Sequence record: MZ726793.1 | Source of the DNA: Escherichia phage vB_EcoM_ASO2A | Direction: 5' to 3' (one strand) | DNA length: 64,000 nucleotides | Shown here: positions 1,805 to 10,371 of the stretch, in pieces | Numbering within the stretch: the stretch's first letter is position 1 | Layout of the letters: each line of letters begins with the position of its first letter | Translations under genes and position numbers: made by a program | Notes under the pieces: model-generated | What the model saw: only the letters and a program-made list of their open reading frames with translations | What the model was told of the DNA's origin: nothing | Databases searched by the model: none

Positions 1805-1830
1805 TTTAAGAAATGCCCCCGAAGGGGCAG
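1805..1830 (-). terminator. possible terminator hairpin (minus strand)
   Basis: GCCCC-TTCG-GGGGC hairpin followed by a U-rich stretch. Confidence 0.4.
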
Positions 1831-1834
1831 TTTG

Positions 1835-2527
1835 TTAAATAGCGGTTCCTTCGAAATCCGCCACATTTACGAGATTAATATTTTCAGATTTAGAAGTCAA
1901 GTTGTTTTCTGCAACAGATTTTTCTTCAGTATCCGCCTCGTTACCTGCCACGTTACGAGGTTCTTCTTCACCGTAGGGATTACCGAATTTCAAAAGATTG
2001 ATCAATTCTTCTTTGGAGAAGTTTTCTAAATCATCGTCTGTTAATTCAATAATCTCGTCTTGTTCTTCAATAAATGTTTCACCACCAGAAAAAGCATCTC
2101 GCTTTTTAGCTACTTCCATAGCTTGTTCTGGTGTTGCCCCTGCGTCAAGAGCAGCTAAAGCAAAGTCTGACCCACTTCCTACTGCATAATATTCTTCATC
2201 AATCGGATATGCACGTGTTGGGTTGTTACCTTCGTGCAAGAAAATACGTCCGTCTGGATGAACAACAAGTGCAATAAACTCTTCATCTTCTTTATCTGGA
2301 TCAGAGTGAATCATCAAACCAGGGACAGCATCACGTGCTGCTTCGCACTGTAGATTTTGTTCAAACCATTGAAAGAAAGAAAGCACGGAGGTCAGACGAC
2401 CAGCACCACCTACAAGGTAATCTCCAATTTTTCGGACCTTTTTGAAATTAATAGAATCTACACGTCCACCAAAAGTTACCTTACCGTCACTCAAAATCTT
2501 ATTTTTGGTTGCAATAATTGTCGTCAC
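1835..2527 (-). CDS. HslV/proteasome-beta-like Ntn-hydrolase peptidase
   Basis: N-terminus MTTIIATKN (Thr directly after Met, as in HslV TTIVSV); GSGSDFALAALDAG resembles HslV GSGGPYAQAAARA; acidic C-terminal tail. Confidence 0.55.
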   Translation of the reverse strand: MTTIIATKNKILSDGKVTFGGRVDSINFKKVRKIGDYLVGGAGRLTSVLSFFQWFEQNLQCEAARDAVPGLMIHSDPDKEDEEFIALVVHPDGRIFLHEGNNPTRAYPIDEEYYAVGSGSDFALAALDAGATPEQAMEVAKKRDAFSGGETFIEEQDEIIELTDDDLENFSKEELINLLKFGNPYGEEEPRNVAGNEADTEEKSVAENNLTSKSENINLVNVADFEGTAI

Positions 2528-3030
2528 TATTCTTCCTCCTCTGTTAATGTTTTAAGAACCGCTTTCCCGCCATTCACATATTTGCAGATGTATTCTATCG
2601 CACGTAGTGTCTCTTTGTCAACAAAAATTTGATCAGACGTTGCGAGCGGGTTATTAAGAAGATCACTGCAATCACGAACAAGCAGTGCTTTCTTATTAAA
2701 CAAATTACTTAAGAACAGTAACTTCGCCTCTTCTTCTGTTATGTGCAGAAGGCTAGGATCGGAGCCAGCTATTCCTATTATACAATCAAACAAGCTTTCT
2801 TTACTATCAGAAAGTTCTTGAAAATGGTTTAAAAGCCAATCTTCTCCTAGACACCAACATTTAAACATTTCCAGTTTATCTCGGAGGGTCATATTCTCTA
2901 AAGTAAGAGCAATCTCTTTTTCAATATGGTTTACACAAATTTGACGAAATTCGTTAGGTTTTACGAGTCCCGTTTGATAGCACTCATCTATACCGCTTCT
3001 TCCGATAGCTATTGTTGCTACACCCATCAA
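2527..3030 (-). CDS. hypothetical protein (167 aa), translationally coupled to HslV-like gene
   Basis: Stop overlaps downstream start (ATGA); no motif recognised. Confidence 0.4.
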   Translation of the reverse strand: MMGVATIAIGRSGIDECYQTGLVKPNEFRQICVNHIEKEIALTLENMTLRDKLEMFKCWCLGEDWLLNHFQELSDSKESLFDCIIGIAGSDPSLLHITEEEAKLLFLSNLFNKKALLVRDCSDLLNNPLATSDQIFVDKETLRAIEYICKYVNGGKAVLKTLTEEEE

Positions 3031-3062: not shown

Positions 3063-3872
3063 TTAAATAAACACTTCAGTAATCAGTTTAGACAAACGTC
3101 CACGTTTATTATCGTCCGTTGTCAGTTCAACGTATCCAATAAAATCTACAATTGGCTCACGAACACCTTCTTCATTTTCTGGATATAAAAGTTCCAAAAT
3201 TTGATGCAGACCATTGCTACGTTTTTTAATTGCATATGTCTGGCGAACATCGCCTAATACAATAACATGCGTATTAATACCTGCACGTTCAATAAGAAGT
3301 TTAAGTGTTTCTGTTGACATAAGTTGTGCTTCGTCAATAATGACGATTGTATTATCCAGGGTGGCCCCCAACAAATAGTTAGGAATATTCAATTCGATCT
3401 TACCTGATCCAATATCGTTTTCCAATTTGTTGGCTGTCATGAATTGCTGGAAAATACGTTTTGTAGATTCATAGTGTGCTGCTAGTTTATCTGTTTTATC
3501 TCCAGACAAGAAACCAATCTGGTCATCTCCGACTTCAGTAGGGTTCTTGATAAAAAGTAGTTTACGGAAGTCTCCTGAACGAAGCATCTGCAAAGCTTTC
3601 CATAAAGCAACAGAGGTTTTACCAGTCCCTGCCGGAGCATTTACAACAGTCAGATCATTCCAAATCATGCTTTGAACAATCTTATTTTGGTCCCCTTCAG
3701 GCATAAATTCATCTAAACGGTAATCGTCATTACCTACCGCTTTTGCTGCATAACGGCTTTCAATCTTTGCTGAATTAGCCAGTTTCTGCCGTTGTGTTTT
3801 AGCTGCGGTTTTATTTCCCATAGTAGCACTCCTTTTAGAAGGGGCCGAAGCCCCTTTATTAGTTGTAAGCAT
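3063..3872 (-). CDS. phoH: PhoH-like ATPase
   Basis: Walker A VNAPAGTGKTSVAL and overall PhoH-like sequence (LENDIGSGKIELNIPNYLLGATLDNTIVIIDEAQ). Confidence 0.8.
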   Translation of the reverse strand: MLTTNKGASAPSKRSATMGNKTAAKTQRQKLANSAKIESRYAAKAVGNDDYRLDEFMPEGDQNKIVQSMIWNDLTVVNAPAGTGKTSVALWKALQMLRSGDFRKLLFIKNPTEVGDDQIGFLSGDKTDKLAAHYESTKRIFQQFMTANKLENDIGSGKIELNIPNYLLGATLDNTIVIIDEAQLMSTETLKLLIERAGINTHVIVLGDVRQTYAIKKRSNGLHQILELLYPENEEGVREPIVDFIGYVELTTDDNKRGRLSKLITEVFI

Positions 3873-4359
3873 CTAAAGTTCCAGAAGTCAGAACTTTAAT
3901 TACTCGTTCAGCACGGTTTGGCGTCTGGCTATACCATCGGCTTTTACGCATGTTTTTACCTGCTTGAGTATAATATGCATTGCTGATTAAAGTCAAGCTA
4001 TTTTGAAACCCTTCAGCACCTTTTAACCCCAACTGGAAAACCATGTTGATTATTCCCAATTTACGAGTATCACTAACCTTATCATAGATTGGTGATAAGA
4101 TAGCACTGTTTTTTATGTCTCTCTTCACTTTTGCAACATCGTCAGCAAAGATTTGACGGGCTTCTTTTTCTGTGATAACTCCATTAGTCTTACGACCAAG
4201 AAGATTATCTAAGATTTGAATAGCCTTTGCTTTATCTTTTATTTTAGTCAGAAGGTGTCCTATGCCGACTGTCCAATAACCAAGATGGTCTTGATAAACA
4301 GTAAGCTTCAGTCCTTCATCGACTCGTAGCATATCAAACTCATCTACTACTTTAGCCAT
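3859..4359 (-). CDS. T4-type lysozyme (endolysin)
   Basis: Aligns along its length to T4 lysozyme: MLRVDEGLKLTVYQDHLGYWTVGIGHLL, INMVFQLG, KSRWYSQTPNRAERVI. Confidence 0.85.
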   Translation of the reverse strand: MAKVVDEFDMLRVDEGLKLTVYQDHLGYWTVGIGHLLTKIKDKAKAIQILDNLLGRKTNGVITEKEARQIFADDVAKVKRDIKNSAILSPIYDKVSDTRKLGIINMVFQLGLKGAEGFQNSLTLISNAYYTQAGKNMRKSRWYSQTPNRAERVIKVLTSGTLDAYN

Positions 4360-4521
4360 TTACTTCCTATTCGTCGTCTCCTACTCCGTGATCCAACTCG
4401 TTAAACAACAGATGTTCTGGAGAAGTTTCACGTTTTGGTTTCGTTTTCTTTATGTTGGACTTCAGCTCATTTGCCAAAGCACGAGAAAAGATCTTACGTT
4501 TCTGTTTACTTTTCATAATTG

Positions 4522-4782
4522 TTACTCCGCAATTTGAGCCATGAGATCACGCAGTTCGGTAAAACCGCCTACGTATGTTACCTCCCCGTTCACTTCGGAC
4601 AGAATTTGTGGAAATGTGCGTGGAGGAACTCCGGTAAGATCAACAACTGTTTTAGTCATTGATTCTAAATCATAGTCTTGATCAAGACTTAAATATTCAA
4701 ACTGTTTATTGCGCATGGTTAATAGTTGTTTTGACATTTCACAAAATTGACAGTTAGGTTTACCAAAAATTACAAATTCCAT
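4522..4782 (-). CDS. glutaredoxin/NrdH-like thiol-disulfide oxidoreductase
   Basis: CQFC active-site motif near N-terminus of an 86-aa protein. Confidence 0.6.
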   Translation of the reverse strand: MEFVIFGKPNCQFCEMSKQLLTMRNKQFEYLSLDQDYDLESMTKTVVDLTGVPPRTFPQILSEVNGEVTYVGGFTELRDLMAQIAE

Positions 4783-5624
4783 TACCTCTCCTTATTAAGT
4801 AATACTGCTAAAGACTGTTCAATACCTTTATTTAAATCTGATTTTGTAAGATAGTGACTGGTTACTAGTTGTGACTTCACCGGACGTGCTGCTGGAGCAT
4901 TATAGGTTGAAGCTGATACCGCCGATATCTTAACAGGTTCTGGCATCTGTGTCAAGATCTTTTCCGCAAACTCCGCCCAAGAAATAAGATGGCTTCCTGC
5001 AAAATGGTAAGTCTTAACAGACCTTGACCAACCTGTTTTTAATACTTCAAAAATAGCTTCTGCTAAATCTGGAGCATATGTTGGACAAGAGAACTGATCA
5101 GCAACAATAATAAAATCACGTTGTCCATCATTATAGCGAGACAACATGGTTTTTAGAAAGTTATTTCCAAATTCGCTATATACCGAGGCTGTTCGAATAA
5201 TATATGCATTTGGGTTAACTCCTCGCACCATTTTTTCACCAAGTTCTTTCGTATACCCATAATTGTTTATTGGGTTAGGTGTAGTATCTTCAAAAATAGG
5301 ATGAGAATAATTAAAAATATAGTCTGTAGAAATATGCACAAAATCAATTTTAAGTTTGCTGCACACTGCCGCAATATTTGCAGGTCCATACGCATTAACA
5401 GCCAAAGCAGTAGCAAAATCATGTTCTGCTTTATCTACAGCCGTATAAGCGGCGCAATTAATAACACCATCTACATAATCTTCAATAATAGCGTTTCGCA
5501 CAGCTTCAAAATTTGTAATATCTACACGTTCTTTAGGATAAATTAAAGATACATTTGAAGGAGCCACTTTACGTAAAGCTTGTCCCAGTTGTCCATTACC
5601 GCCCAATACCAGATATGTTAGCAT
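4782..5624 (-). CDS. rmlD: dTDP-4-dehydrorhamnose reductase
   Basis: N-terminal Rossmann motif LVLGGNGQLGQAL, ~280 aa, last gene of rml operon. Confidence 0.8.
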   Translation of the reverse strand: MLTYLVLGGNGQLGQALRKVAPSNVSLIYPKERVDITNFEAVRNAIIEDYVDGVINCAAYTAVDKAEHDFATALAVNAYGPANIAAVCSKLKIDFVHISTDYIFNYSHPIFEDTTPNPINNYGYTKELGEKMVRGVNPNAYIIRTASVYSEFGNNFLKTMLSRYNDGQRDFIIVADQFSCPTYAPDLAEAIFEVLKTGWSRSVKTYHFAGSHLISWAEFAEKILTQMPEPVKISAVSASTYNAPAARPVKSQLVTSHYLTKSDLNKGIEQSLAVLLNKER

Positions 5625-6184
5625 ACACCCTCGCTACGTAACTGTTGAAAAGATTTAGCCATTGCATCTTTTGTTGATAGAATAGGTTTAAAACCTTCGT
5701 CAAAAATCATATCGAAGCCCCAATCGATCCCTATATCAGGATCATCCCAACGTAAACTTTGTTCACTAGAAGGGTCGTATGGAGTTGTGCATTTGTATTC
5801 AAAGATAGCATCCATACTCAAAACTATAAAACCATGAGCCAAACCAGGCGGAAGCCAAAACTGCGTATGGTGTCGTGCACGAAGAACAACACCGTCCCAA
5901 GCACCGTAAGTTGGACTATCTTTACGTAAATCTACAGCGAAATCCAATACTTCCCCACTTACACAACGAACTAGCTTACCTTGCGGGTTATTTGTTTGAA
6001 AGTGCATTCCTCGCAAAACACCGAAGTTTGATTTAGACATGTTATCTTGAACGAAAGTTTGTCTACCAATAATATCTTCGTATTTTTGTTCATTATATGT
6101 TTCTAGAAAGAAACCACGATCATCTTTATAAACGTCTGGTTTGATAATTACCGCACCTTCAATTTTTGTTTTTTCTACTTTCAT
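5618..6184 (-). CDS. rmlC: dTDP-4-dehydrorhamnose 3,5-epimerase
   Basis: Cupin-type RmlC sequence ([19 protein letters not shown]); start trimmed to Met41 of the listed ORF so that rmlA stop and rmlC start overlap as ATGA. Confidence 0.8.
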
Positions 6185-7059
6185 TTTCTCTCCGCTAATT
6201 TGAGTAGGTATTGCCCGTACTCTGTTTTCTTCAGTGAGTTTCCATGATACACCAAAGTCTCTAAAGAAATCCACCCTTTTTTGAAAGCAATTTCTTCCAG
6301 GCACGCAATCTTCAATCCTTGACAGTTCTCAATAGTCTGCACGAATTGACCAGCTTCCATCAGACTGGCGTGTGTTCCTGTGTCAAGCCAAGTAAATCCT
6401 CGTCCGAGAACTTCCACTTGTAACTTCCTGTCTTCTAGGTAGCTGCGATTGATATCAGTGATCTCCAGTTCTCCACGCGCGGAAGGGGTTACTTCTAATG
6501 CACGTTGAATAACAGAGTTATCATAGAAATACAAACCTGTGACAGCATAATCTGATTTAGGATTTTCAGGTTTCTCTTCAATAGAAATAGCTTGACGATT
6601 ACTCCCAAATTCAACCACACCGAATCGTTCAGGATCTTTCACCAAATACCCGAAAATACAAGCTCCGCCCCAAACATCTACCATCTCACTGGCGTTAATC
6701 AGTAGTTTACCAAAGCTTTGTCCGAAGAATAGGTTGTCACCTAAAATAAGAGCAACAGAGTCTTCTCCGATAAAATCTTTACCTATGATGAAAGCTTCCG
6801 CAAGACCTCGTGGCTCGGATTGGATTGCGTAAGTGAGTTTTATCCCAAACATAGACCCATCTCCGAGAAGATACTCAAAGTCTTCCTGATCACCTGGTGT
6901 GGTGATGATTAAAATATCCTTAATGTCAGCCAACATCAATACCGATAAAGGGTAGTAGATCATGGGTTTGTCATACACAGGGAGCAATTGCTTGCTCACA
7001 CTGCGTGTTACCGGATGAAGGCGGGTTCCGCTTCCTCCCGCCAAAATAATACCTTTCAT
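6181..7059 (-). CDS. rmlA: glucose-1-phosphate thymidylyltransferase
   Basis: [39 protein letters not shown] closely matches bacterial RmlA. Confidence 0.9.
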
Positions 7060-7067
7060 AACCCTCC

Positions 7068-8060
7068 TTAAATTTTCTCACTCCACCATTGAGGGTTGTT
7101 TAAGTACCATTCAATCGTTGAGTAGAGATCTTGTTCAAATGTAGAGTTTGCACTCCAGCCCAGTTCAGACTCTATCTTAGAAGGATTGATTTCATAACGC
7201 AAGTCATGTCCTTTACGATCTTCAACAAAAGTTATCAAGTTGGAAGAAGGGTAGGTTACTGCTTCTGGATGTACAGTATCCATATAGTCACAAACCATAT
7301 AGATGATCTCCATATTGGTTTTGGGATTACGTGTTCCAACATTATACGTTTGACCTGGTTCTCCACCTGTTGCCACTTGAAGAATAGCTCGCGCATGATC
7401 CTCAACAAAAAGCCAGTCTCGCACCTGGTCGCCTTTACCATACACCGGAATCTCTTTATTCGTCAAGATACTTGTGATGATTTTTGGGATCAGCTTTTCT
7501 GGATGTTGATAAGGCCCAAAGTTATTGGAGCAGTTGGTTATCACAACAGGCAAATCGTAGGTGCGGTGCCAAGCTTTCACAAGATGGTCAGATGCCGCCT
7601 TAGACGCACTGTATGGGCTTGAAGGGGCATAAGCTGTCTCTTCGGTAAAAGGAACGCCAGAGTCTGCCATATCGCCGTACACTTCGTCTGTGGAGACGTG
7701 TACGAACATCTTCAGTTTATTTTTTGGGAGGAGCCTTGCAGCTTCCAATAAATTGTATGTACCAATAATATTGGAGTCAATGAAAACTCGTGGATTCTTG
7801 ATAGAATTATCCACATGACTCTCTGCCGCTAAGTGAATGATGAAATCGGGATTGCACTCTACTACTAAACTTTTGACCTGGGTTTCGTTTGCCAAATCTG
7901 TCATGCTTAGTTTAATGTGAGTGATATCGCCTACATTCTCAATATCTGCTGCATAGCCCATCTTATCAACGACAAAAACTTCGTTATTAGGATCTTGACA
8001 AAGAGAGCGCACCACGGCACTCCCAATAAAACCAAGACCACCTGTTACCAGATAGCGCAT
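7068..8060 (-). CDS. rmlB: dTDP-glucose 4,6-dehydratase
   Basis: N-terminal Rossmann motif [13 protein letters not shown] and catalytic YSASK motif; 330 aa. Confidence 0.9.
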
Positions 8061-10346: not shown

Positions 10347-10371
10347 TCAATAAAAAGGGGCTGAAGCCCCT
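10347..10371 (-). terminator. intrinsic terminator (minus strand) after nrdA
   Basis: GGGGC-TGAA-GCCCC hairpin followed on the minus strand by TTTTTATT. Confidence 0.6.

Follow-up and report, generated by a model that had tools for sequence, protein, structure and literature searches.

Why should a bacteriophage carry a chambered protease for which it appears to encode no motor? The prevailing view of HslV, ClpP, the 20S proteasome and other chambered proteases is that each relies on a dedicated AAA+ motor, docked on a surface specific to its core. The question is raised by a 64,000-nucleotide stretch of Escherichia phage vB_EcoM_ASO2A (MZ726793.1; the whole stretch is called the window below), in which a gene for a 230-residue HslV-like peptidase directly follows a gene for a 166-residue protein, here called its partner. 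A sequence-only reading of this DNA had proposed an HslV-like threonine peptidase, translationally coupled to the partner, which might act on host or defence proteins or in morphogenesis. We report that the slot occupied by this gene, downstream of a PhoH-like ATPase gene, is filled in related phages by either of two unrelated cores, HslV-like or ClpP-like, and that the proteins of both types carry a common C-terminal extension. We found no previous description of this exchange, of the common extension or of the PhoH-linked context, which includes the Vibrio cholerae phage ICP1, and we regard them as new. The 'peptidase HslV family' identity and the absence of HslU are already public (RefSeq, PHROG 1040 and remarks in the literature) and are not new; HslV genes without HslU were remarked on in the Salmonella jumbo phage pSal-SNUABM-04 (PMC7823757). 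A search of the literature on phage HslV-like or ClpP-like accessory proteases found annotation-level mentions only, and no functional study.

Two unrelated protease cores in one slot

The first 6 kb of the window match Escherichia phage PNJ1809-36 at 100% identity and phAPEC8 at 99.7%, and the window is of the phAPEC8-like Phapecoctavirus type, within the Stephanstirmvirinae. The gene order PhoH, small gene or genes, protease is kept across this subfamily and across Aeromonas and Vibrio myophages, including ICP1. In all of the long-form lineages that were examined, the slot is preceded by PhoH, be the core HslV-like or ClpP-like (Stephanstirmvirinae, Aeromonas phage 2L372D, Vibrio phages 1.187.O, 501E54-1, 1.170.O and ICP1, and contigs L011, L016, L017, L018, L020 and L021).

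Homologues of the partner were inspected in 10 lineages, and in 8 of them the protease gene comes directly next, overlapping or at most 40 nucleotides away. The protease is HslV-like in 6 of these 8 (the window, phage alia, Klebsiella phages 05F01 and KP13-16, and contigs L011 and L020). The other two, the divergent metagenomic phage contigs L016 and L018, have a ClpP-family gene in its place, encoding 187 residues in L016 (PF00574, 33.9 bits for a cut-off of 20.2) and 212 in L018, and their partners are homologous to the window family (profile E = 2.4e-17 and 6.5e-17; hhalign probability 99.2%, E = 1.8e-19). In KP13-16 we read PhoH, partner, HslV-like protease and phosphatase, and in L018 lysozyme, PhoH, partner homologue, ClpP-like protease and Metallophos, a pair of gene orders that we interpret as positional replacement of the protease core. 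The order in L016 is PhoH, a 71-residue gene, partner homologue, ClpP-like protease. The ClpP-like proteins of L016 and L018 are only 35% identical to each other, as are their two partners, and the arrangement is thus old rather than a one-off event.

The same exchange is seen in the Vibrio phages. Phages 1.187.O and 501E54-1 have PhoH, a gene of about 60 residues and then an HslV-like protein of 267-288 residues, and in 1.170.O and ICP1 that same slot holds a ClpP-like protein of 278-326 residues. The small gene directly upstream of the protease is homologous in all four (32-39% identity) and may be the Vibrio-phage counterpart of the 166-residue partner. Its loci are L012 3304-3498, L003 3810-3986, L023 3834-4013 (1.170.O) and L024 3794-3976, and its product shows the motif '...A.ELGF....I.ELS..EL...'. 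Alignment of the ClpP-like cores with E. coli ClpP shows the catalytic Ser and His in all of them and an acidic residue where ClpP has Asp, and these cores look active by this measure. They are ClpP-fold serine proteases (PF00574), unlike the threonine N-terminal nucleophile (Ntn) hydrolase of the window, and are annotated either as 'ClpP ATP-dependent protease subunit' or as 'coil containing protein'.

As judged by sequence comparison, the extensions borne by the two unrelated cores are homologous. The ClpP-like protein P0154 shares 56% identity with the HslV-like protein of 1.187.O over the last 77 residues (E = 5e-27), and P0173 shares 38% with that of 501E54-1 over 165 residues (E = 1e-22). 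The latter stretch covers the whole extension, made of an acidic linker, a '...SKEE(L/I)L...' helix, a middle segment and a terminal helical unit with the pattern '...LK.YA..LG(I/V).F.HNI....L...'; Pfam has no model for it. The window protein, like the other Phapecoctavirus and Justusliebigvirus versions, has only the proximal part of this extension, that is the 'SKEELINLL' helix (residues 163-182) followed by a disordered acidic tail. This helix (TDDDLENFSKEELINLLKFG) falls within the homologous 165-residue stretch, and the profile of the short extensions matches the ClpP-like extensions exactly on it, with an hhalign score of 24.7 that none of 150 column shuffles reached (mean 7.5, maximum 14.3). 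A tblastn search with one ClpP-like extension alone found only itself, and pairwise BLAST of some extension pairs was weakly significant; the link is clear with better-chosen pairs and with profile comparison.

The extension of the window protein is acidic, as had been noted from the sequence: residues 156-230 have an isoelectric point of 4.05, with 20 Asp and Glu residues for 5 Lys and Arg. In a single-chain AlphaFold (AF2) model built on 29 homologues, helices are predicted at residues 164-168 and 172-181, and the confidence score (predicted local distance difference test, pLDDT) falls below 50 at residues 190-214. The proximal helix is conserved in alignments of relatives; the distal tail (residues 183-230) varies in length and sequence.

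The exchange of two unrelated chambers behind constant neighbours, with a constant extension, suggests that regulation or substrate delivery can work independently of core-specific docking. As the core is swapped and the extension and neighbours are kept, the activity under selection would be proteolysis in a chamber, which argues against both a non-protease role of the Ntn hydrolase and an inactive decoy. For the same reason, the function specific to the module would sit in its constant parts and not in the surface on which a core-specific motor docks.

A predicted threonine peptidase divergent from bacterial HslV

The 230-residue protein is a homologue of the HslV/proteasome-beta superfamily and not a chance open reading frame (ORF), on the evidence of profile and structure-based searches alike. 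It matches PHROG 1040 ('peptidase HslV family') with E = 1.6e-63, residues 1-229 aligning to positions 14-247 of the 277 of the profile. The Pfam Proteasome model (PF00227) is passed marginally (25.6 bits for a gathering score of 22.4), backed by the PHROG match. In a sequence search of the PDB the best match was Thermotoga maritima HslV (1m4y, E = 4.9e-9), followed by a dozen further HslV chains. The AF2 model has a pLDDT of 82 overall and mostly 84-98 in the core, down to 74 in residues 71-80. Foldseek matched the model to HslV, BPH and 20S beta structures at probability 1.00; there were 854 PDB matches at E<=0.001, and the best 50 of the 854 are all HslV, BPH or 20S beta subunits. The modelled fold is that of an alpha-beta-beta-alpha Ntn hydrolase, and structure prediction and profile search, the two checks proposed for the sequence-only reading, both place the protein in the Ntn-hydrolase/HslV group, as that reading had anticipated.

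The active site is conserved. The N-terminus reads MTTIIATKNK, with the same MTTI start as E. coli HslV, and the nucleophile Thr thus directly follows the initiator Met, without a propeptide; its exposure after Met removal is predicted. All of the 29 homologues keep M1, T2, T3, I4, D14, K30, G43, G117, S118 and G119, and the Thr after Met, on which the earlier proposal hinged, is lost in none; most of these ten positions remain invariant when E. coli HslV is added to the alignment. With the E. coli K-12 HslV sequence taken from the genome record, T2, D14, K30 and G43 align with Thr1, Asp17, Lys33 and Gly45, and the GSG motif already spotted (G117-S118-G119) with G123-S124-G125. We propose, from this conservation, that the protein is a catalytically competent threonine peptidase. 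HslV-like proteins were found in 270 phage records, including Aeromonas, Vibrio, Caulobacter and Rhizobium phages.

Could such a core simply be driven by the motor of the host? Phage rings might dock on host HslU, with the HslU C-terminal tails inserted between subunits, so as to form a phage-specified HslUV or to titrate HslU away from host HslV, the acidic extension recruiting substrates or modulating HslU. The E. coli host does encode hslVU. Without HslU, whose tails it needs for activation, HslV is slow and attacks only some peptides and unfolded proteins (PMC6429459). Besides the conserved active site and the match to T. maritima HslV, the phage protein keeps E. coli HslV E61 and, among the tail-pocket residues named in the same paper, F57, with F54 replaced by Leu and Q114 by Tyr; this last change counts against docking. 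So do the loss of a 9-residue segment of the helical region, an acidic segment around residues 76-84 in place of the basic 83-91 region of E. coli HslV, and a variable Ser at the position of E. coli Lys28, which presumably pairs with the HslU carboxy-terminus. The phage protein shares with bacterial HslV (ClpQ) the proteasome-beta Ntn fold, the MTT start and the equivalents of Asp17, Lys33, Gly45 and Ser124; it is about 27% identical to it, has no adjacent hslU, differs in its apical region and bears a 75-residue acidic extension that HslV does not have. Scores with the HslV equivalog models TIGR03692 and PRK05456 (31.4 and 32.2 bits) are far below the cut-offs of 157.75 and 137, and by this standard the phage protein is not an orthologue of bacterial HslV. 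Moreover, HslU cannot dock on ClpP, yet ClpP-like cores fill the same slot with the same extension, so that a host motor, if used at all, is not the constant feature of the module. We consider such a hijack of host HslU unlikely.

Other motorless relatives are also instructive. The orphan bacterial proteasome homologues BPH and Anbu likewise have an HslV-like core without an AAA+ partner, and BPH structures are among the top fold matches (5ovt and 5ovs, E about 3e-10), with a likeness no better than that to HslV. By sequence, the match to BPH is not significant (E = 1 to 5ovs), and we do not place the phage protein in that family. The Anbu operon consists of ATP-grasp, alphaE and transglutaminase-like genes, and the activity and activator of Anbu are unresolved (PMC6376114). 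None of these genes is found among the neighbours of the protease locus (PhoH, the 166-residue protein, a 144-residue protein without assigned function and a methyltransferase). The protein studied here differs from BPH and Anbu in being phage-encoded, with an extension and neighbours of its own. Core-only members of PHROG 1040, from phiCbK-like, Rhizobium, N4-like Vibrio and Pseudomonas phages, are also phage-encoded, with the MTT start and GSG motif and without HslU. They differ in their length (about 130-170 residues), in lacking the extension and in having neither PhoH nor partner nearby, and are 25-35% identical over the core.

In Aeromonas phage 2L372D (L002), a 183-residue gene (3432-3983) lies directly upstream of the long HslV-like gene (4001-4885). 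Its product is a divergent proteasome-like paralogue, with a (L/M)TCIIA start and GCG instead of GSG (Pfam Proteasome E = 0.013 over nearly the full length; hhalign E = 1.4e-4). Such tandem proteasome-type subunits hint at a hetero-oligomeric particle.

Motors, neighbours and a possible mode of action

Among all ORFs of the 64-kb window, a scan for Walker-A motifs found PhoH, a small AAA_33 kinase-like protein and one family-less ORF, and nothing of HslU or Clp type; nor did the complete annotation of phAPEC8 hold a Clp-, Hsl- or Lon-type unfoldase. The earlier remark that no HslU-type ATPase lies nearby thus holds for the window and, with the search for an AAA+ partner that it had called for, for the phAPEC8 annotation. 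The sole AAA protein of phAPEC8, gp014, is encoded about 105 kb away in another transcription unit. We rejected it as the missing motor: its family occurs in 396 phage records, for the most part from phages of Enterococcus, Bacillus, Staphylococcus and Lactococcus, the weaker matches that it has in PHROG are to clamp loaders and helicase loaders, and the phages of Gram-positive hosts that carry it are not among the HslV-like hits. As a separate observation, gp014 (PF00004) is followed in phAPEC8 by gp013, a CapR-domain/treble-clef zinc-finger protein annotated as 'endonuclease' (L007 39005-41404, outside the window); the pair is unrelated to the protease.

PhoH itself is another ATPase to consider. 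It could feed the protease as a ring ATPase, with the small protein or proteins and the extension as couplers. In favour of this are its position upstream of the slot with either core, and a pair of hairpins with UUCG loops that, in the window, enclose exactly PhoH, partner and protease. If true, the coupling of PhoH to a protease would be a new architecture of ATP-dependent protease and would give a function to the enigmatic phage PhoH. Several points speak against it. PhoH is very widespread in phages without such a protease, and none lies near the core-only HslV-like genes. The gap between PhoH and the protease can hold from one to six unrelated genes, and the order may be ancestral. Finally, in Vibrio phage 1.170.O the PhoH slot (L023 2365-3765) encodes a PIN-PhoH fusion (PIN_4 E = 3.6e-30; PhoH E = 8.9e-29), which suggests that the PhoH of this module acts on RNA and not in protein unfolding. 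On balance we regard a PhoH motor as very unlikely.

The reading that we favour, tentatively and with a little less than even confidence, is that of an accessory chambered protease that has no dedicated motor and owes its specificity to its extension and perhaps also to the partner. HslV and ClpP are self-compartmentalising; left to themselves they cut only peptides or unfolded polypeptides, and a core-specific AAA+ partner is normally required. The phage protein would be co-transcribed with PhoH and the 166-residue gene as a hairpin-bounded block of three genes, as the arrangement of the sequence suggests; its Met1 would be removed by methionine aminopeptidase, exposing the Thr as nucleophile, as expected from the invariant MTT and the precedent of HslV; and its subunits would, given the fold, stack into a ring chamber. 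The module would be defined by its constant parts, the extension and the upstream small protein, and not by HslV chemistry. The constant extension would comprise the acidic linker and the amphipathic 'SKEELIxxLL' helix, with a distal helical domain in the longer relatives. The chamber would serve as a generic degradation compartment, for which the extension and the 166-residue protein would supply docking, gating or substrate selection, which would account for the phage doing without a cognate AAA+ unfoldase. The targets of the particle would be unfolded or disordered proteins and peptides, either of the host or made early by the phage, and at most a host unfoldase would be borrowed, according to its fit with the core.

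A broader proposal can be made, to which as a whole we give little credence at present: that these proteins form a hitherto unrecognised class of phage accessory proteases defined not by catalytic fold but by a portable C-terminal module (acidic linker, amphipathic 'SKEELIxxILGE' helix and distal helical domain) together with small upstream partners, the module serving in targeting or activation and driving a chamber of HslV or ClpP type with no need of a classical AAA+ unfoldase. Under this proposal the extension helix might be a cis activator or gate, by analogy with the HslU tail peptides, or might instead link the chamber to PhoH, the ATPase encoded beside it.

How much of this can be ascribed to the partner? 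It matches PHROG 14834, and no other family, defence-system or PDB match was found for it; its profile is unrelated to that of the protease family. The partner family is small, with 14 members in an exhaustive profile search of 1.84 billion representatives, and among cultured phages it is confined to the Stephanstirmvirinae (133 records). Its AF2 model (pLDDT 91) is mostly helical, with strand-helix-helix units at both ends (E5-9, H10-18, H24-44 ... E133-137, H138-149, H151-165) around a helical insert. The end units resemble a single-chain ribbon-helix-helix pair, a likeness that no sequence or fold search backs. None of the protease, the partner and the 144-residue protein downstream matched a PADLOC defence-system model at E<=1.

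The neighbours may be unlinked to the protease, the 166-residue protein being for instance a nucleic-acid-binding regulator and the overlap of the two genes a matter of compact phage packing. The end units of the partner would fit this, as would the overlapping or abutting genes that are common throughout the region. The Aeromonas and Vibrio relatives, moreover, have the protease with its extension but no member of the partner family, so that the partner is not an obligatory cofactor (its profile also gave a negative result by hhalign with four of the six genes between PhoH and protease in 2L372D), and ORFs intervene between partner and protease in L021 (two, small) and in L017 (six). The two genes do stay adjacent in most of the lineages inspected for the partner. 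We hold it to be distinctly unlikely that they are unlinked, and it is plausible that the 166-residue protein is a lineage-specific adaptor or regulator in the Stephanstirmvirinae. These absences and insertions nevertheless weigh against a protease specified by extension and partner, and there are other points on the same side: (i) the region is syntenic across the subfamily (glutaredoxin, lysozyme, PhoH, etc.), and partner and protease could be adjacent through an inherited order of genes and not through functional coupling; (ii) the core-only genes of unrelated phages indicate that the extension is not required for every phage HslV-like protein; (iii) the exchange of cores would be explained equally well if each core worked with a host unfoldase of its own; and (iv) Anbu, a related orphan homologue, can lack detectable in vitro peptidase activity (PMC6376114).

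The module of extension, partner and exchangeable core is present in therapeutic-candidate coliphages (the phAPEC8/phi92 group) and in the genetically tractable ICP1, and is therefore directly testable. It may show what a phage gains from a protease of its own, be it host takeover, counter-defence, turnover of early proteins or amino-acid recycling, and may help to explain the frequency of PhoH in phage genomes.

Layout of the locus

All genes of the protease locus are on the minus strand according to the ORF list (Table 1).

Table 1. Features of the protease locus, in window coordinates
Feature	Position	Strand	Evidence and remarks
HslV-like peptidase gene, 230 residues, GTG start (2527-2525)	1835..2527	-	ORF list, PHROG, Pfam, PDB, AF2/Foldseek
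Catalytic core, residues 1-155	2063..2527	-	alignment with E. coli K-12 HslV, AF2 pLDDT
Amphipathic helix of the C-terminal extension, residues 163-182 (TDDDLENFSKEELINLLKFG)	1982..2041	-	alignments, AF2, hhalign
Acidic C-terminal tail, predicted disordered, residues 183-230	1838..1981	-	pLDDT, composition, alignment
Shine-Dalgarno GGAGG of the HslV-like gene	2535..2539	-	read from the sequence; spacing 7 nucleotides; inside the 3' end of the partner ORF
Partner gene, 166 residues, PHROG 14834	2527..3027	-	ATG 3027; TAG (2529-2527) overlaps the protease GTG by 1 nucleotide
PhoH-like P-loop ATPase gene, first in the block	3063..3821	-	Pfam PF02562, E = 1.2e-36; ribosome-binding site and ATG read
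GC-rich hairpin, UUCG loop (AAAGGGGCUUCGGCCCCUU), between lysozyme stop and PhoH start	3838..3857	-	upstream block boundary
GC-rich hairpin, UUCG loop (UGCCCCUUCGGGGGCA, then UUUCUU)	1814..1829	-	5 nucleotides past the HslV-like stop; downstream block boundary

The two ORFs lie where the sequence-only reading had put them, except that its partner of 167 residues, the mechanical ORF from TTG 3030, is probably one residue too long: the start is more likely the ATG, as annotated by RefSeq and preceded 4 nucleotides upstream by AGGAGG. In the same way, the mechanical PhoH ORF (ATG 3872) runs over the lysozyme stop and the hairpin, and the gene probably begins at ATG 3821, the start given by RefSeq, with AAGGAG ahead of it. 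The RefSeq equivalents in phAPEC8 are gp175 ('peptidase HslV family') and gp174 ('hypothetical protein') for protease and partner, respectively. The overlap of protease start and partner stop is real, base 2527 being common to both codons (TAGTG), and overlaps of 1 nucleotide in metagenomic L020 and of 4 in Klebsiella phage 05F01 are seen in relatives. The translational coupling that had been deduced from it is compatible with this arrangement.

The hairpin past the HslV-like stop is predicted to be a terminator-like or RNA-stabilising element, and PhoH, partner and protease would, by their place in the nucleotide-metabolism region, be expressed early or in the middle of infection as one unit. 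The phAPEC8 annotation does not mark terminators at these hairpins. A similar stem-loop is found at 10357-10370, and the tetraloops of these stem-loops are of the UUCG/UUCA type.

The surroundings also bear on the proposed role in morphogenesis, in which the protease would process head or other virion proteins during assembly. Prohead maturation is commonly carried out in phages by ClpP-like and other chambered-type proteases, and the ClpP-like query matches about 2,000 phage records, many of them probably of the prohead type. The HslV-like gene, however, is surrounded on its own strand by glutaredoxin, lysozyme, dTDP (deoxythymidine diphosphate)-rhamnose, ribonucleotide reductase and thymidylate synthase genes, opposite to the strand on which phAPEC8 encodes a Peptidase_S78_2 protein, gp117, between the portal and major head genes. 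We rejected a head-maturation role on the grounds of this S78_2 protease at the portal, and consider any morphogenetic role, which the sequence-only reading had entertained, to be extremely improbable. The gene for gp117 itself (L006 16487-16966, roughly 34.1-34.6 kb in the window) is labelled 'DNA methyltransferase' by both RefSeq and PHROG. It matches Peptidase_S78_2 (XkdF-type) and head-maturation protease PHROGs, lies between portal and scaffold/major head, and is probably a mis-annotated prohead protease.

Two further observations concern the region and the phage group. Just upstream of the block, window positions 4782-8060 encode a complete dTDP-L-rhamnose pathway (rmlA/B/C/D-like, that is thymidylyltransferase, 4,6-dehydratase, 3,5-epimerase and reductase), an auxiliary sugar-nucleotide pathway in a lytic coliphage. 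Lastly, several records named 'Campylobacter phage' (MG065650 B15 and MG065639 A150 among them) and one named 'Acinetobacter phage' are 99% identical to this coliphage group, and their labels probably reflect a contaminant or a wrong host assignment.

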